A DNA stretch of 64,000 bases from Alphaproteobacteria bacterium (GCA_964291675.2 OZ219866.1:3456001-3520000), one strand, 5' to 3'; counted from the stretch's first letter, positions 7,382-26,790 are shown. Notes: generated by a model from the letters alone, not told the origin. Numbers and translations: made by a program.

Positions 7382-7694
7382 CACCAGCGCACAATGCCCC
7401 ACGAAACTGCCTGAAGCGATCGGCCAATGGCCGAAAGCTCTGCTTACGGCCATGGCAGCCCTCTGGCGCGGGGACGGCGGCGGGTCACCCGAAGGGCCGT
7501 AGCGGAGCGAAGGAGCCGCGAAGCGGCTTGAAGCGCCGACGGCCTCGCGACACTCCCCGCCCGGCCTTCCTGCAAACGGCAGACGATCCCCATCGAATAA
7601 CGCGAAATCCGCACCATCAAACAACGTGCGCGCGCTCACTGTTCCGATGGGGGGCGTTTGGTGGGTCTGAGTGCTTGGGAAGTGGGCCCTTGTT

Positions 7695-7724
7695 AAGTGT
7701 CCACTTAGCGGCAAGTGGACACTT
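7695..7724. promoter_or_regulatory. 12-bp inverted repeat over the tnpA start region
   Basis: AAGTGTCCACTT-N6-AAGTGGACACTT. Confidence 0.55.
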
Positions 7725-8146
7725 GGCCGATGTCGGTTGCGAGTGAGAAGCCGGGCGCGGGAAGCGGTGAGACGGCCGATCGGCGGCGCCGTCGGTGGAG
7801 CGAGGCTCAGAAGCGCCAGATCGTCGCGGAGAGCCATGAGCCTGGGGTTTCGGTGTCGGTCGTTGCGCGGCGTTACAACGTCAATGCCAACCAGGTCTTC
7901 ACCTGGCGTCGGCGGTTCCGCGAGGCGGCGCGCGACGCCGGGGCTGGCCGGTTGGTGCCGGTGGTGGTCGAAGCGCCTTGCGACGGGGAGGCCGGCGCGT
8001 CGGCGCCGTGCCGGTCGTCCGGGGACGTTGTCGCGGCGGCGGGGCGGATCGAGATTGCGCTGGCGTGCGGCGCGCGTGTGATCGTCGGCCGGGCGGTGGA
8101 CGGTGTGGCTCTGGCCCGGGTTCTTGCGGTTCTGGATCGGCGATGA
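7715..8146 (+). CDS. tnpA: IS66 TnpA (HTH)
   Basis: RRRRWSEAQKRQIVAES...VARRYNVNANQVFTWRR; start may be ATG 7730. Confidence 0.9.
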   Translation: MDTWPMSVASEKPGAGSGETADRRRRRWSEAQKRQIVAESHEPGVSVSVVARRYNVNANQVFTWRRRFREAARDAGAGRLVPVVVEAPCDGEAGASAPCRSSGDVVAAAGRIEIALACGARVIVGRAVDGVALARVLAVLDRR

Positions 8147-8490
8147 TCCCGGTTCCGGGTGGTGTGCGGGTGTGGCTGGCGACCGGGGTGACGGACATGC
8201 GTCGCGGCATGAACACGCTGGCGCTGCAGGTCCAGGAGGATCTCGGGCGCGACCCTCACGCGGGCGATCTCTACGTTTTCCGGGGCCGTCGCGGCGACCT
8301 GATCAAGATTCTCTGGCACGACGGGGTTGGGATCTCGCTGTATGCCAAGCGGCTTGAGCGGGGCCGGTTCCAGTGGCCGACCACGTCTGGGGGCGCGGTG
8401 TCGATCGGCGCGGCGCAGCTCGGCTACCTGCTGGAAGGGATCGACTGGCGGAATCCGGTTCGGACCTGGCGGCCGTCGCGGGCGGGCTGA
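8143..8490 (+). CDS. tnpB: IS66 TnpB accessory protein
   Basis: MIPVPGGVRVWLATGVTDMRRG...LYAKRLERGRFQWP. Confidence 0.92.
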   Translation: MIPVPGGVRVWLATGVTDMRRGMNTLALQVQEDLGRDPHAGDLYVFRGRRGDLIKILWHDGVGISLYAKRLERGRFQWPTTSGGAVSIGAAQLGYLLEGIDWRNPVRTWRPSRAG

Positions 8491-9971
8491 TCGGCGGGGG
8501 AGCCGTGCGGTCGGCGCGATTGTTGTAGCGCCGAATCGGGTGCTGTGATTCGATTCCGCCAATGACCGGCGGATCCAACATTGCATCTCTGAAGGCGGCG
8601 CTTGCGGCGGCCGAGGCGCGGGCCGCGAACGCCGAGGCGAAGGTGTCGGACGCCGAGGCGGAGATCGCTTTCCTCAAGCTGGCGGTCGAGAAGCTCCGGC
8701 GCGAGCTCTACGGGCAGCGCTCGGAGCGCAAGCAGCGGCTTCTCGACCAGCTCGAGCTGCAACTCGACGAGCTTGAGGCGAACGCGACGGAGGACGAGCT
8801 GGCGGCCGAGCAGGCGGCGGCCGGCACGACCGAGGTCAAGGGGTTCACGCGGCGCAAGCCGGCCCGCAAGCCGTTCCCGGCGCATATTCCGCGCGAGCGG
8901 AAAGTGGTTCCGCCGCCGACATTCTGCGCGTGCTGCGGCTCGGAGAAGCTGTCGAAGATCGGCGAGGACGTGACCGAGACGCTGGAGGCGATCCCGCGCC
9001 AGTGGAAGGTGATCCAGACGGTGCGCGAGAAGTTCACCTGCCGGGCTTGCGAGAAGATCGGCCAGCCGCCGGCGCCGTTCCACCCGACGCCGCGGGGCTG
9101 GGCTGGCCCCAACCTGCTGGCGACGATCCTGTTCGAGAAGTACGGGCAGCACCAGCCGTTGAACCGCCAGCGCGACCGCTACGCGAGGGAGGGTATCGAT
9201 CTCAGCCTGTCGACCCTGGCCGACCAGGTGGGCGCGTGCACGGTGGCGCTGAAGCCGCTGCACGATCTGATCGAGGCCCATGTCATGGCGGCGGAACGCC
9301 TGCATGGCGACGACACCCCGGTGCCGGTGCTGGCCAGGGGCAGGTGCGCCACCGGGCGGGCCTGGGTCTATGTGCGCGATGACAGGCCGTTCGGCGGTCC
9401 GGATCCGCCGGCGGCGCTGTTCCGCTACGCGCGGGACCGGTCCGGCGCTCACCCGGTCGCGCATCTGGAGACCTTCGCCGGCATCCTCCAGGCCGACATC
9501 TACGCCGGCTACAACGCCCTCTATGTGGCCGGGAGATTGCCCGGGCCCGTGATCGAGGCTGCGTGTTGGGCGCATTCGCGAAGGAAGTTCTTCGATCTCG
9601 CCGACATCGCGGCCGGGAAGAGGCGCGGCAAGGACCCGCCGCCGGTCTCGCCGCTCGCGCTGGAGGCGGTGAAGCGGATCGACGTGCTGTTCGATATCGA
9701 GCGCGGGATCGTCGGCAAGTCCGCGGAGGAGCGCCTCGCCGTGCGCCGGGAGTTGAGCGCGCCGGTGCTGGCCGAACTCAAGGAGTGGATGCGGGCCGAG
9801 CGCGTGAAGCTGTCGAAACATGCCCCGGTGGCCAAGGCGATGGACTACATGCTCAGGCGCTGGGAGCTGTTCGCCCGCTTCCTCGACGACGGCCGCATCT
9901 GCCTCACCAACAATGCCGCCGAGAGGGCGCTCAGAGGTATTGCGACGATGGAGTCATTCTGCACCCCTTCT

Positions 9972-12044
9972 TCAAGTGTCTGAAAACATTGACATCTGAT
10001 CCCGACATGAAGCGCGACGCGGGTCTTTCCGCAGTGCCAGGGCGTTGGCGACCCGCTCGGAATGGAGGTCTTTGGCCCTGATTTGCCAGGGCGCTCCGGG
10101 AACGAGTTGCGTGGCAGGTAGCGTTCCATCCTCGATCAGGCGCCTGAGGGTATGGCTGGTCGTGCCCAACTCTTTCGCCGCCTCGGTCATGGTGCGCCAG
10201 TCGCCCTGCTTGTCCGCTGAGAGGTAGCCGTCGATCCCGTTCACACGCCGGATCGATCCGACCCGGTGAGCGGTCCAACTCTTGTGCTGCCCGGTCCGCA
10301 TACCCATCCGGTTGAGCGACGCGGCGATATGTTCGTCCGACCATCGCCCGGCCATGCTGCGTATCACTGCCAGAGCTTCCTCGGGCGTTCGGCAGCCATG
10401 TTCGCCGCTCTTGGGCTTGCGGACCCTGAGACGGGAATGACGGCCACCCATCCAGTGGATCGTCAGCAGGACGTCACGCGCCTCTTCGTCGACATCGACG
10501 ATTATGCCCATGATCAGGGTGCGCACGAGACGCTGGCGGGCGCGCATGCTCACCCCGGGCGCGTTCCAGGCGGCCTTCAGGTCGTCGGCAAGTCCGGCCA
10601 GGTCGGGGACAGTGGGCCGCGGCGACGGCATCGCGCCCAGCCTTGCTTCGCACGCCTGGACGCGTCGAAGCGCTGCCTCCCAACTCTTCTCCAGCTCGGC
10701 GGCGATCAGCCGGTTGTCCGGATCGCAGGCGGCGTAGCGCCGCTCGGCGAGCGCCGCCTCGTAGCGGGCTTGCTGCAGATCCAGCTCGGCCACCCGTTGC
10801 TGTTCGGAAAGACCCTCCGCGTTCATCCGCTCGGCTTCCAACGAGGCTTCCACCGCCATGGGCTCCACGACGCGGAGGATCTCATCGGCAACGGCCGCAT
10901 CCACACGCGCACCCCCGAACCCCAGACAGGGCTCTAGCTCGAGCTGGAGGTGTCGCCGATTGCAGCGGTAGACAGGATTGCCGGGCGTGCGACCGGAATA
11001 GGCAACGCTCATCGTGCGTCCGCAGCGTGCGCAACTGAGGAGGCCGCCAAGAAGCGCCCGCCCGCCGCGCCCCGACTTCGTGCCCCCCGCCTTGCCGAAG
11101 GCATTGGCGGCGAGCTGCGCCTGGTTGCGCTCGAACTCCGGCCAGTCGATGTAGCCCTCGTGATGGTCCTTCAGCACGACCTCCCATTCCGCCATCGGCT
11201 TGCGGTGTCCATAGCTCTTGCGCACGCGCCCGTCGACGATCTCGGTCCGCCGCTCGCTTTTGCCGTAAGCGTAGACCCCGGCGTAGAAAGGGTTCTTCAA
11301 CACCGAAATTACGTTGCGATAGCGGATCGGCGTCCAGTCGAAGGAGACCATTGTCCTGCCATCCGACGGGCGTGGGAAGCAAAGCTTCTGCCCGCTCAGC
11401 GCCAGCAACACCTGCCGCGCGCTGCCAAGCTCGCGAAACCGGGCGAATACCTGACGGATCGCTTCCTGAACCCGAATGTCGGGGTCCAGCCCCAGCCCGG
11501 CCTCGGGATGCCAGACGTAGCCGATCGGGACGCTGATGCGAAGCTCGCCGCGGGCGGCCTTGGAGCGGGCGGCCTCGAACATCCGAGCGCGCAGAACGCC
11601 GAGTTCGAACTCGCTGATCTGGCCCTTCATGCCGAGCAGCAGACGATCGTTGGGGTGGCGAGGATCGTAGATGCCATCCTGGTCGATGACGCGTGCCTCG
11701 ACGAGACCGCAGAGCTCGAGAAGATGGTGCCAGTCCCGGCCGTTGCGAGAGACCCGCGAAGCCTCGAAACAAAGCACGGCTCCAACGTCCCCGGCGCACA
11801 GCCAGGCGACGAGGCGCTCGAAACCGGGCCGCGCAACGGCACCGTCCGCCGACAGGCCCTGATCGTCGTCGATGACTTCGACCCGGGCAAAGCCGTGCCC
11901 GCGCGCCACATCGACGAGATCGTATTGGCGGCGCTGGCTCTCCAGATTGTTCCGCATCTGCTGGGGCGTGGACTGACGGACATAGACCACGGCCTTGCGC
12001 GTCAACACCGATCGCGGCAACGCTTCAGCGACGCCCATCGTCAT
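9972..12044 (-). CDS. Large serine recombinase (resolvase + recombinase + Zn ribbon + C-terminal HTH)
   Basis: AVVYVRQST, EASRVSRN, NPFYAG, CARCG, DPDNRLIAAELE. Confidence 0.92.
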   Translation of the reverse strand: MTMGVAEALPRSVLTRKAVVYVRQSTPQQMRNNLESQRRQYDLVDVARGHGFARVEVIDDDQGLSADGAVARPGFERLVAWLCAGDVGAVLCFEASRVSRNGRDWHHLLELCGLVEARVIDQDGIYDPRHPNDRLLLGMKGQISEFELGVLRARMFEAARSKAARGELRISVPIGYVWHPEAGLGLDPDIRVQEAIRQVFARFRELGSARQVLLALSGQKLCFPRPSDGRTMVSFDWTPIRYRNVISVLKNPFYAGVYAYGKSERRTEIVDGRVRKSYGHRKPMAEWEVVLKDHHEGYIDWPEFERNQAQLAANAFGKAGGTKSGRGGRALLGGLLSCARCGRTMSVAYSGRTPGNPVYRCNRRHLQLELEPCLGFGGARVDAAVADEILRVVEPMAVEASLEAERMNAEGLSEQQRVAELDLQQARYEAALAERRYAACDPDNRLIAAELEKSWEAALRRVQACEARLGAMPSPRPTVPDLAGLADDLKAAWNAPGVSMRARQRLVRTLIMGIIVDVDEEARDVLLTIHWMGGRHSRLRVRKPKSGEHGCRTPEEALAVIRSMAGRWSDEHIAASLNRMGMRTGQHKSWTAHRVGSIRRVNGIDGYLSADKQGDWRTMTEAAKELGTTSHTLRRLIEDGTLPATQLVPGAPWQIRAKDLHSERVANALALRKDPRRASCRDQMSMFSDT

Positions 12045-12210
12045 CCTCCTTCACCGGGGCGGTCGCCGCTTCCAGAAGCAACCCGGCCACTGCGCTCACC
12101 ACCGCGTCTCGTTCCTCCGAGCTCAGACCGCGCAGCGTCGGTGCGTCGAGCGGCATGCCGAGCTGTCGGGGTTCTCTCGGCGGTCGCGCTGTTACAGGCA
12201 AAGACTTCAT
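12025..12210 (-). CDS. Small protein overlapping the recombinase start
   Basis: MKSLPVTARPPREPRQLGMPLD...LLLEAA with GAGGAG Shine-Dalgarno; same frame as the longer 12025..12543 ORF. Confidence 0.6.
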   Translation of the reverse strand: MKSLPVTARPPREPRQLGMPLDAPTLRGLSSEERDAVVSAVAGLLLEAATAPVKEDDDGRR

Positions 12211-12526
12211 CGCGCTCCTCTCCGCTAACGGTTCCGTCATCGGGGGAGCTATGTCGAAAACCTGGCCGACGAGAAGCTCGTGAAGTGCGGCGAGGGCGGC
12301 CGGGGAGGCACGCGGCGCGCCGATCTCCATGCCGGCGCATGACGCAGGATCAAGCATCCAGGCGGGTATCTTGATGATCAGCCCCGGCTCTACCTCGACG
12401 GAGGCCATGAGGCCGTCTGCACGCTGTTCGATAACTTCAGGGCGTACTCGCCGACCGAACAGTGCGTGCCAGCGGTAGTGGATGACGCAATCCTGCCCGA
12501 TATGGGCAGAATGAATGCGCGATCGC
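12211..12526 (-). CDS. Accessory ORF body whose start lies at the other element end (completed on excision)
   Basis: IHSAHIGQDCVIHYRWHALFGRRV...IPAWMLD; in frame with ATG at 9957 across attP. Confidence 0.55.
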
Positions 12527-12856
12527 CCTGGGCCGCAAGTCATGGCTCTTCGCCGGCTCGGACCGCGGCGGCGTACGCGCGGCGGCGATGTACACGCTCA
12601 TCGGCACCGCCAAGCTCAACGATGTCGATCCGCAGGCCTGGCTCGCCGACGTGCTAGACCGAATCGCGGACACGCCGCAGACCAGGCTCGAAGAACTCCT
12701 CCCCTGGAACTGGGTTCGGGAACAGAAGCTCGATCAGGCCGCATAGAGCCTGCCCCCGCGAAGGCGGGGGCCAGATCGCACGCGGACCGTTTCGCTCCGA
12801 GCCAGCTGCTGCTCAAAATCAGACTGAATACCCCTGCGGTCTTCGGCGGATGCTTA

Positions 12857-14773
12857 GAGTGCCAGGCTAACTGGTGGAAGGGTAGCGGGTGAAAGTCCCG
12901 CGAAACGAAAGGAGTAGCCAACCACGTTTCTCCGCGAGCCGTGCATCGTCGGCCGTGAGGCCGGGGGTGAAGCGTCGGTAGCGGTGCATGCGGGCAGGGA
13001 TATTGAGCGCCGAAAACGAGATGGTCCGAAGTGCCGAGACGTTTAAGCTCGTCGAAGGCAACATCGTCCACACCGCAATATGGCGAGGTGTGGGGGAGCT
13101 TCGCGGCGTCGGGGACCCCATGCACGCATGTAAGCCCACCACCGGGACCTGGGAGGTCTTCACACTGCCCCGATGGTCGTATCGGGGCCGCGAAGGGAAG
13201 GAGGTATCCGAAGCCTGAGATGAACGGAGTGAAGAAGTCGGACGGGGCCATAGTACCGTCGAAGCGGGCGAACAACGGGGCGCGAGCCTCTGCGGAGTCC
13301 GTGGAGGAAAGGGCCTCGACCAAGGGGAATCCGCGAAGCGAAAGCACGCGCCGGACGCAGAGCCGGGAAAGCGTGACCCAGGCCGCCGAGCGGATACGTC
13401 AAGCTGCAACGAGGAAACCGCAGGAGAAACTGACGGCGCTCCTGCATCATGTCACGCCGGACGCGCTGCGCTGGGCCTTCCACGCGCTGAAGCGGGACGC
13501 CGCGGCGGGGGTGGACGGCATGACATGGGCCGAGTACGCGAACGGGCTGGAAGAGCGGCTGCTCGACCTGCACCGGCGCGTACAGTCCGGGGCGTATCGG
13601 GCGCCGCCGGTCCGGCGGGTAGAGATACCCAAGCCGGATGGCGGGACACGACCGCTCGGCGTCGCCGCGCTGGAGGACAAGATCGTCCAGAAGGCGGTGA
13701 CGGAGATCATCCTGACGCCGATCTACGAGCCGGTCTTCCTCGGCTTCAGCTACGGGTTCCGACCGGGGCGCGGGGCGCATGACGCACTCGACGCGCTTGC
13801 TGTCGCCATCAATCGGCGGAAGGTCAACTGGGTGGTCGACTGCGACATCCAAAGGTTTTTCGATTCTGTTTCGCGGGACTGGCTCGTCCGGTTCCTTGAG
13901 CACCGGATCGGGGATCGGCGGGTGATCCGGCTGATCGCCAAGTGGCTGAAAGCCGGCGTCATGGTCGATGGCCGGTGGGAGGACACGCAGCAGGGCACGC
14001 CGCAAGGGGCGATCGTCTCAGCCACGCTGGCGAACGTGTATCTGCACTATGTCCTCGACCTCTGGTTCCATCGCAAGTGGCGGCCCGAAAGGGCAGATGG
14101 CGATGCCATCATCGTACGCTACGCCGATGATGTGGTCGTCGGCTTCCAGCGCAAGAGGGACGCGGAACGCTTCCTGCATGCGCTTGGGGAACGGCTCGGC
14201 CAGTTCGATCTGGCCCTGCATCCGGCCAAGACCCGGCTCATCGAGTTCGGCAGGTTCGCGGAAGTGGACCGCCGGGCACGGGGGCTGGGCCGCCCGGAGA
14301 CGTTCGACTTCCTGGGCTTCACGCACTATTGCAGGACGACCAGGAGCGGGCAGTTCGGGCTCGGACGCAAGCCCGTTGCAAAGCGGATGAGCCGCACCCT
14401 GAAGCGCATCGCGGAGGTTCTGCGGCGGCGCAGGCACCACGACCTCCACGAGGTCGCCCGGTGGCTGGGGCGGGTAGTCAACGGATGGCTGAACTACTAC
14501 GCCGTCCCGACGAGTGCCCGCTTCCTGCGAAGCTTCACCTACATCCTGAAACGGATATGGCTGAAGGCGCTGCGCCGACGGTCGCAACGGGATCGCTTCA
14601 GCTGGCAACGGCTGCAAGCCCTGGTTGACCGATACTGGCCCAAGCCATGGATCCGACACCCGTGGCCGGGGCAGCGGTTCGACGTCAAATACCCGAGGTA
14701 GGAGCCGGATGGCTTAACGGCCACGTCCGGATCTGTGCGGGGGGCGCCGGGAAACCGGCGTCCCTACCGCGAC
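12857..14773 (+). mobile_element. Group II intron 1 (1,917 nt) in IS66 right inverted repeat
   Basis: 5' GAGTG (GUGYG variant); domain V GAGCCGGATGGCTTAACGGCCACGTCCGGATC; domain VI ending CCCTACCGCGAC; EBS1 loop TAAGC 13044-13048 pairs with exon GCTTA. Confidence 0.88.
13220..14701 (+). CDS. ltrA: Group II intron reverse transcriptase/maturase (no endonuclease domain seen)
   Basis: AAGVDG, IPKPDGGTRPLG, FSYGFRPGR, GTPQG, RYADD, FDFLGF; start uncertain. Confidence 0.93.
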   Translation: MNGVKKSDGAIVPSKRANNGARASAESVEERASTKGNPRSESTRRTQSRESVTQAAERIRQAATRKPQEKLTALLHHVTPDALRWAFHALKRDAAAGVDGMTWAEYANGLEERLLDLHRRVQSGAYRAPPVRRVEIPKPDGGTRPLGVAALEDKIVQKAVTEIILTPIYEPVFLGFSYGFRPGRGAHDALDALAVAINRRKVNWVVDCDIQRFFDSVSRDWLVRFLEHRIGDRRVIRLIAKWLKAGVMVDGRWEDTQQGTPQGAIVSATLANVYLHYVLDLWFHRKWRPERADGDAIIVRYADDVVVGFQRKRDAERFLHALGERLGQFDLALHPAKTRLIEFGRFAEVDRRARGLGRPETFDFLGFTHYCRTTRSGQFGLGRKPVAKRMSRTLKRIAEVLRRRRHHDLHEVARWLGRVVNGWLNYYAVPTSARFLRSFTYILKRIWLKALRRRSQRDRFSWQRLQALVDRYWPKPWIRHPWPGQRFDVKYPR

Positions 14774-16246: not shown

Positions 16247-16779
16247 GTAACCCTCCGCTGAGGACCGCCTTTTGTCAATCGGCTTTCAATACTGACCCCC
16301 TATATCGGCGTGCAAAATTAACCCCCTGAGAGGCACGGCGGAGGTTGTCCCGGTAGCCAATAGGGGGGACCCGCGCGGCTTCGTGTAGCGCCTTGCGTTA
16401 CGCGAAGCGAAGCCGCGTGGGGGGTCCCTGTTGGCTACCGGGGTATCGCCCTCGGAAGACGCAGTTGGTTGTTCGCCGGCTCCGACCGCGGCGGCGCCCG
16501 TGCGGCGACGATGTACACGCTCATCGGCACCGCCAAGCTCAACGATGTCGATCCTCAGGCCTGGCTCGCCGATGTGCTCGGCCGCATCGCCGAGACGCCG
16601 CAGAGCCGGCTCGACGAACTCCTCCCCTGGAACTGGGTCCCGGAGCAAAAGCTCGATCGCGCAGCATAGAGCCGGCCCCCGCGAAGGCGGGGCCGGACCC
16701 CGCCCGGCGCTTAATCGCCAGCATCGCCCCGCCGACAAACTCAGCCCGAATTAGCCCGCGGTGTTCGGCGGATGCTTAC
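16247..16779 (+). mobile_element. IS66 copy B, internally deleted (533 bp): IRL + IS21 end + tnpC 3' end + IRR
   Basis: GTAACCCTCCGCTGAGGACCGCC; GIALGRRSWLFAGSDRGG...LLPWNW (about 16442-16669); TTCGGCGGATGCTTAC. Confidence 0.85.
16273..16442. mobile_element. IS21-family terminal remnant with long hairpin
   Basis: TGTCAATCGGC start; two ATCGGC..AA.A.T.ACCCC repeats; hairpin CCCGGTAGCCAA (16349-16360) / TTGGCTACCGGG (16431-16442). Confidence 0.65.

Positions 16780-24807: not shown

Positions 24808-26790
<1,983 letters not shown>

Follow-up and report, generated by a model that had tools for sequence, protein, structure and literature searches.

In the skin element (SpoIVCA) and the fdxN element (XisF), an element carrying a large serine recombinase (LSR) interrupts a gene, and its precise excision restores that gene. 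In IS911, IS30, IS2 and Tn4451, whose TnpX is an LSR, the ends joined in the circular form create a -35/-10 promoter that favours re-insertion of a circle that does not replicate; sensing of state by a junction promoter is already a known kind of control. State-dependent promoter switching is described for the int gene of ICEKp1 in the part of PMC13023037 considered here. For the SSV-type ('suicidal') integrases of archaeal viruses and plasmids, the portion of PMC7253208 used for this comparison places the recombination site in an open reading frame (ORF); integration splits the gene and the circle carries it whole. Here we analyse a 64,000-nucleotide stretch of DNA from an Alphaproteobacteria bacterium (GCA_964291675.2, OZ219866.1:3456001-3520000; the window), in which a 2.58-kb insert read at 9944-12526 splits tnpC of an IS66 element. 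The first gene of the insert, ORF1, is itself divided between the two ends of the insert. We propose that this division is probably a translational switch gated by element topology, with ORF1 as a candidate recombinase cofactor and with tnpC restored on excision.

How does this locus compare? As in the SSV-type systems, going by the portion of the account cited above, the attachment (att) site falls within one of the element's own ORFs, which integration splits. Unlike those systems, which as portrayed there use a tyrosine recombinase and split the integrase gene itself, the present element keeps its serine recombinase intact and divides ORF1, detaching from its body only the Shine-Dalgarno (SD) motif, the ATG and five codons. 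Unlike the skin and fdxN elements, it interrupts a transposase gene that belongs to another mobile element, and it is only 2.6 kb long and multi-copy.

The 5' part of tnpC (8562..9943, plus strand; Pfam DDE_Tnp_IS66 at E 3.9e-82, with zf-IS66 and LZ_Tnp_IS66) is broken after the codons R-G-I-A and ends at a GC; reading restarts at 12527 with L-G-R-K-S-W-L-F in the 3' part (12525..12746, plus strand; DDE_Tnp_IS66_C at E 9e-20). This GC, the crossover dinucleotide, stands at both junctions, at 9942..9943 on the left and 12525..12526 on the right. Two sister copies in the source genome, 99% identical (C1:902539-905313 and C2:1235494-1238268), sit in a different IS66 tnpC, their left flanks differing from that of the window right up to the GC, and they too have GC at both junctions. 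Because independent insertions share them, the edges of the element and its GC core are fixed. The flanks of the two sister copies are identical over the stretches compared, and the two may be one locus assembled twice (the genome has a reported contamination of 6.67%). Ten nucleotides inside each GC lies one arm of a perfect 9-nt inverted repeat. The arm at 9954..9962 reads TCATTCTGC on the plus strand and GCAGAATGA on the gene strand (minus), and holds the ATG at 9957-9955; the other, at 12506..12514, reads GCAGAATGA on the plus strand and TCATTCTGC on the gene strand, where it encodes H-S-A of ORF1. On the minus strand the recombinase stop (9972-9974) is directly followed by the SD-like run GAAGAAGGGG (9963..9973), 6 nt and the ATG. 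The initial annotation had described this insertion, with its GC crossover, symmetric arms and SD-N6-ATG, and reading of the sequence bears it out; the crossover, which if placed elsewhere would have undone the proposal, is held in position by the sister copies.

In the integrated state the ATG at 9957 opens an ORF of eight codons only, just as first annotated. The first full codon of ORF1 inside the element begins at the C of the right GC, and in the window copy no start codon occurs inside the element before ORF1 codon 40. The crossover falls between codons 5 and 6 of the joined ORF1, and the att site thus lies inside the gene, with the SD, the ATG and the first five codons past the recombinase stop at the opposite end, inside the att arm. 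Joining the ends in silico shows that a canonical SD-ATG stands in frame before ORF1 only in that joined form (attP, the excised circle). The junctions likewise show that precise excision would restore tnpC. Contigs from 4 of 24 listed runs (X1 and X2, possibly DNA; X19 and X20, RNA libraries) were compared with 9700-12750, and those of X1, X2 and X20 jump exactly from 9941 to 12525; uninterrupted targets with these flanks therefore exist. This joint is not proof of excision, because uninterrupted IS66 copies give the same one.

Is the split gene a trait of a family? Relatives were gathered by protein search (57) and by a profile scan across species, each represented by one genome (293 stretches, 80 of them retrieved). 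The 57 protein relatives, all unnamed, have variable N-termini, with conservation setting in about six residues later. Hosts are Alpha-, Beta- and Gammaproteobacteria, with a few metagenome-assembled genomes labelled Gemmatimonadota, Chloroflexota and Terriglobia, and 201 plasmid records match, most commonly from Rhizobium (67) and Sinorhizobium (57); plasmids of Paracoccus yeei and Sinorhizobium meliloti are among the carriers. Among 97 loci scanned, 54 have a candidate far arm 2.5-2.7 kb downstream; after removal of one whose near edge runs off its contig and of L070, a false arm, 52 elements of 2579-2623 bp were kept, 47 of them distinct. All 52 carry the far-arm ATG at the fixed place, and in all 52 the joined ends run without a stop into ORF1. 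Thus the earlier proposal that start and body lie at opposite ends and meet only in the circle is strongly supported, with SD-ATG and frame conserved across attP in homologous elements. The two junction dinucleotides are equal in 42 of the 52, differ in nine and are cut by a contig end in one; they are mostly GC, with AC, GT and TT also found. The arm TCATTCTGC, as read on the gene strand at the ORF1 end, is exact in 43 of the 47 distinct elements. The far-end ATG is preceded by an SD-like motif in 44 of 47; among other ATGs of these elements, taken as controls, the count is 292 of 1982. A match of 8 nt to the SD is found at 12 of 47 far-end ATGs against 2 of the 1982 controls. Within about 19 codons of that ATG a stop occurs in 0/47 elements in frame and in 15/47 in the +2 frame. 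Inside the 47 distinct elements there is no conserved start and no in-frame ATG before codon 32; an in-frame ATG, GTG or TTG within the first 17 internal codons is present in 11, at varying positions.

Several observations, given here and with the joined form and the mechanism below, weigh against a switch. The first is the symmetry of the site. The far-end ATG mirrors, as its reverse complement, the His codon CAT in the other arm, and ATG and frame come about because the att site is symmetric with a fixed spacing (24 nt, arm-N10-NN-N10-arm). Moreover, the 52 elements have one ancestral design in common and do not count as independent trials. The split start could then be a by-product of site symmetry, with ORF1 translated from integrated copies through flanking starts, non-canonical starts or antisense read-through of IS66. 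Such translation has some footing: 17 of 52 host flanks offer an in-frame ATG, GTG or TTG, ATG in seven cases, and the 11 elements with an early internal start point the same way. The window copy is one of the seven. Its host-derived ATG (12541..12543, minus strand), antisense to the S-W codons of tnpC and six codons before the junction, is in frame by accident of the target and could drive ORF1 translation in this integrated copy, a caveat that the initial annotation had raised with good reason. We nevertheless consider a symmetry by-product unlikely. No start is available in 35 of the 52 flanks, an in-frame stop falls within 30 codons in 32, and in the source genome both sister copies show a stop but lack a start. 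At this end a strong SD is maintained, reaching AGGAGGT at 5-6 nt from the ATG, and the corresponding mirror position on the other arm does not resemble it; if not for ORF1, the SD-ATG would start only a handful of codons leading into variable host DNA. The SD run, the missing internal starts, the open frame and a natural joined contig add weight beyond what symmetry alone explains.

That contig, L105 (2389 bp), is the only occurrence of the joined arm-N22-arm pattern in metagenome_contigs. It runs from the recombinase C-terminus through stop, SD, ATG and arm-N22-arm (core AC) to ORF1 and reads through as predicted. L105 shows that the joined arrangement exists as natural DNA. At 217-1745 an IS3-type orfA/orfB pair is inserted in its ORF1, and because the IS3 cuts ORF1, the contig could represent a tandem or a trapped molecule instead of a transient circle. 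Searches of genome_contigs (with two patterns) and of viral_contigs gave 0 occurrences each. For the window element itself no attP joint appears in the contigs of the four runs, which also suits a symmetry by-product; contigs drop rare variants, so this null is uninformative. RNA-library contigs extend over the left junction and portions of the recombinase (X19, 9756-10364), a kind of coverage that cannot show strand, starts or transcription.

The missing promoter is another point against a switch. Neither a promoter nor a terminator was predicted in the integrated sequence (9700-12800), and a sigma-70-like promoter across the joined ends was found in 0/47 elements, by a consensus scan that may miss alphaproteobacterial promoters. 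The likeness to IS911-type elements and Tn4451 is that end-joining in the circle would switch on a gene for recombination; the difference is that here an SD and start codon would be joined to a gene body, a translational rather than a promoter device. As in ICEKp1, expression of a recombination gene would be tied to the integrated or circular state, and unlike that case, which the consulted part of its description presents as transcriptional and as belonging to a tyrosine-recombinase integrative and conjugative element, the control would act on translation. Relative to the known kinds, the sequences suggest three differences: a serine recombinase, a split cofactor rather than a split recombinase, and a junction that joins translation signals rather than promoter boxes.

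The element consists of three overlapping genes on one strand: ORF1, ORF2 and LSR. ORF1 spans 160-174 codons inside the element and, once joined, gives 165-179 aa. Its N-domain (12235..12525, minus strand), delimited by alignment, AF2 prediction and a start scan, is conserved, folded and DUF5372-like. Over some 95 aa it has 11 invariant columns in 42 sequences of 39-76% identity, with synonymous change over about 95 codons, and AF2 gives residues ~11-90 a pLDDT of ~81-92. The tail is not conserved and is predicted to be unstructured (pLDDT 33-42). One could suppose that ORF1 is not a protein and that the conservation of the end reflects a DNA site of the recombinase only; the first eight or so codons (H-S-A-H-I/V-G-Q) are indeed conserved at the DNA level, third positions included. 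We find this scarcely credible given the synonymous change and invariant residues over the whole domain, the confident fold, a frame open in 52/52 elements and the DUF5372-like features.

ORF2 (12025..12210, minus strand) encodes 61 aa; it sits in the +1 frame inside the tail of ORF1 and has a separate SD and an ATG at 12210. An SD-like motif and ATG are present for ORF2 in 31 of 33 distinct intact elements, a 30-sequence alignment reveals a conserved motif, and a single helix is predicted at residues 31-50 (mean pLDDT 73). ORF2 ends 20 nt past the LSR start in the window and 11-20 nt (up to 74) past it across elements. The stop TGA of ORF1 overlaps the LSR ATG as ATGA, a 4-nt overlap shared by 32 of the 40 elements whose recombinase has at least 680 aa. 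Between ORF1 codon 98 and the LSR start, zero stops occur in the ORF1 frame (34/34 distinct intact elements) and in the ORF2 frame (34/34), and the third frame is open in 0/34, with a mean of 4.06 stops. A programmed frameshift from ORF1 into ORF2 was considered and is not favoured, ORF2 lying in the +1 frame with a start of its own in nearly all elements. In the RefSeq record of pSmeSM11b (PGAP), ORF2 (as a hypothetical protein) and the recombinase are annotated and ORF1 is not. In the chromosome ORF1 lacks a start codon, and gene callers miss it for that reason; linear annotation does not see genes that are split across att sites.

In the window copy the two small genes appear as one. The initial annotation had read a 171-aa ORF from the junction to 12025, and such a frame does run across the in-silico join, but it is a frameshift fusion of two genes and not the normal gene. 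The site is 12262..12263, where the window has CCTGG and other copies have CCTTGG or an equivalent; the missing base fuses the ORF1 N-domain to the ORF2 frame and cuts it off from the tail, which in its normal frame occupies 12041..12261 (minus strand, within the listed ORF 12041..12340). Only the window copy lacks the base, which is present in 16 of 16 other aligned copies (the two sister copies, one 84% relative from the source genome and 13 loci from other genomes). Logan contigs carry it at full depth, 12.9 of 12.9 in X1 and 59.6 of 59.6 in X2. With the base in place there are therefore two genes, ORF1 and ORF2. The gap may be either a real mutation of the window copy or an assembly error, and the two are not separable because the three copies collapse in the X1 and X2 contigs. 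Metagenome proteins P0007, P0009, P0013 and P0056 likewise combine the N-domain of ORF1 with the motif of ORF2 in a single frame, as either natural fusions or frameshift errors like that of the window. That the single 171-aa protein is the functional product can call on these four proteins and on the open frame of the window as given. It is very improbable, set against the extra base elsewhere and its full depth, an ORF1 that takes the other frame in 51 of 52 elements with 160-174 internal codons, and the separate start of ORF2.

The recombinase gene (9972..12044, minus strand) has its own SD and encodes 690 aa ending in an HTH_17 domain, as assigned by Pfam and PHROGs matches. Pfam matches are Resolvase PF00239 (E 2e-20, residues 18-167), Recombinase PF07508 (DNA-binding domain 1, DBD1; E 1e-17), Zn_ribbon_recom PF13408 (DBD2; E 2.5e-07) and HTH_17 (E 5.5e-06). 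The protein also matches phrog_95 integrase (1.6e-57), and its score against NCBIfam XisF (6.6e-21) is far below the cut-off. Identity across 28 elements is 65-89%; in these sequences R23-Q24-S25-T26, which includes the serine nucleophile of the resolvase domain, and the zinc-ribbon cysteines C338, C341, C361 and C373 are invariant. A coiled coil is presumed, from the sequence, to be inserted in DBD2 at about residues 395-470. A resolvase domain with its serine, a DBD1, a four-cysteine DBD2 and a 2-nt core common to both partners, with no duplication of the target, place the enzyme among the LSRs.

What might ORF1 be? Neither ORF1 nor ORF2 has a match in Pfam, NCBIfam or PHROGs, and PF17342 (DUF5372) matches none of 24 ORF1 family members at E up to 5. 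A Pfam match to Raffinose_syn in 10 of the 24 (best E 0.00014) was judged spurious. In the ESM Atlas the features of ORF1 point to DUF5372 (score 0.94, 222 of 256 shared, 30 of the 30 listed matches), a score that is uncalibrated for parts of proteins; ORF2 retrieves unnamed clusters only. An hhalign comparison of ORF1 with four true DUF5372 proteins gives a weak match (probability 17.9%, E 0.0014) that is colinear over 74 columns. Foldseek against the PDB returns nothing at E <= 0.001, with only weak SH3/Tudor/KOW-like rows. A true DUF5372 gene of the source genome (C2:3652735-3652409, 67.5 bits) has its own Met and lies upstream of an LSR, and ORF1 likewise precedes its LSR. That gene belongs to a second recombinase module composed of a DUF5372 gene, a 152-aa ORF and a 718-aa LSR (C2:3649410-3652735 and C1:1135630-1137780, near both contig ends). 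ORF1 may thus resemble DUF5372 in features and, by the colinear hhalign match, in profile, and it shares the place upstream of an LSR. It differs from true DUF5372 proteins, whose own Met comes right before the first strand, in carrying about 14 additional N-terminal residues that overlap the att site and in lacking its own start.

Complex prediction was run for LSR with ORF1 residues 1-100, from alignments built for this analysis, in three runs and with three controls. An ipSAE of 0.72 was obtained in the three runs and 0.00 for the best control; among solved complexes 58 of 80 reach the mark applied, compared with 2 of 110 for mismatched pairs. Contacts common to the runs amount to at least 79%, and the partner pLDDT is at least 72. 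The predicted interface on LSR comprises residues 337-344, 388-405, 477-510 and 528-538, that is, the zinc ribbon and both sides of the presumed coiled coil. The model supports, but does not demonstrate, docking of ORF1 at the zinc-ribbon/coiled-coil junction, where recombination directionality factors (RDFs) bind. In the part of PMC12286644 considered here, all verified RDFs are predicted at the junction of DBD2 and the coiled coil (DBD2-CC). ORF1 is like the RDFs treated in that part (gp3, gp47, SprB) in being a small protein beside the recombinase with a predicted place at this junction; it is unlike them in lacking sequence likeness, and synthesis gated by topology fits an excision-only factor poorly. 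Counting against the switch here is that the score expresses the confidence of a model run from alignments of our own making. For the split protein a role as recombinase cofactor has support; the roles first suggested for it in replication or as a regulatory factor do not.

Based on these observations, a switch would operate as follows. With no terminator predicted, any promoter on the sense strand of the element would drive transcription round the circle and through the junction, and ORF1 would be made essentially from the circle only. Ribosomes translating ORF1 would pass the ORF2 start and finish at that of LSR, and the ORF1 protein would bind LSR at the zinc-ribbon/coiled-coil junction. 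With ORF1 gated by the circle and binding LSR, topology would therefore decide which cofactor accompanies the recombinase. Two points weaken this scheme. Coupling is perhaps unneeded because LSR has its own SD, and the scheme sits awkwardly with a classic RDF, which would prevent re-integration if the circle were its only source. An excision factor made only after excision makes little sense, and our preference is accordingly for an ORF1 that licenses or protects integration, or works in trans on sister copies.

A directionality toggle with two cofactors would go further, and we regard it as possible, if on balance doubtful. Integrated copies would translate ORF2 and LSR only, with ORF2 as the excision factor. 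In the circle, the joined SD-ATG would start ORF1, and ribosomes would occlude the ORF2 start and reach the LSR ATG (ATGA); ORF1 would then occupy the DBD2/coiled-coil junction and reset the enzyme to integration. If the toggle is true, a two-cofactor switch is contained within 2.6 kb with almost no non-coding DNA.

The topology-gated switch that we prefer has its setting in a narrow choice of target. Distinct insertion sites with both flanks known number 44; 26 of these match a strict tnpC-motif pattern and most others are IS66-like by eye, with site L017 a look-alike outside IS66. In all IS66-type sites the element genes are antisense to tnpC. From these sites, LSR appears to insert the element at one dinucleotide in DNA encoding ..AER..R.IA, before the insertion point, and LGRKNWLF.., after it, of IS66-family transposases. 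At L052, L040, L048, L049, L063, L072, L092 and L103 one flank mirrors a target half-site and is not the tnpC 5' part, which looks like the outcome of recombinase-mediated inversion between two copies.

The surroundings of the insert in the window are themselves mobile. Upstream of tnpC, sequence reading places tnpA at 7715-8146 and tnpB at 8143-8490, and a 139-bp stretch left of the IS66 unit (7501-7639) recurs with 100% identity at C1:346819, C1:900671 and C2:3253028. About 150 nt past the right end of the interrupted IS66, domains D1-D4 of a group II intron match at 170 bits (12892-13118), and a reverse-transcriptase-like ORF of 556 aa lies at 13031-14701; a second group II intron lies near 24.8-26.8 kb (24834-24976 and 26647-26790). 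A tnpC 3' fragment at ~16430-16692 is 87% identical to 12522-12769. The fragment, examined at ~16445 as another insertion at the same site, was rejected as such: its likeness to tnpC extends past the GC, by about 12 nt on the upstream side, and no element arm adjoins it. Elsewhere in the source genome, C2:2698-3370 holds a decayed relative (a copy at 84% of the region of ORF1 and ORF2, flanked on one side by IS66 and with no matching recombinase), and C2:3252588-3252849 a remnant with ~170 bp of the ORF1 end beside an IS66 fragment.

What are the implications of a gene that is whole only in the circle? Neither the element family nor DUF5372 is described in the literature that was searched, although the predicted-RDF tables of PMC12286644, outside that search, may list DUF5372-like proteins. 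The element is apparently a widespread and undescribed site-specific mini-element of 2.58 kb. If our reading is true, an abundant family of unannotated mini-elements, many of them on rhizobial plasmids, senses its integrated or excised state at the level of translation. It would be a mobile element specialised in parasitising the IS66 transposase gene, a safe target that is multi-copy and itself mobile. Its compact sets of recombinase, att site and cofactor, of defined sequence, would be of use in recombination studies. The DUF5372-like protein would gain a testable function as a recombinase cofactor, and under the toggle this would be the first function for such proteins.

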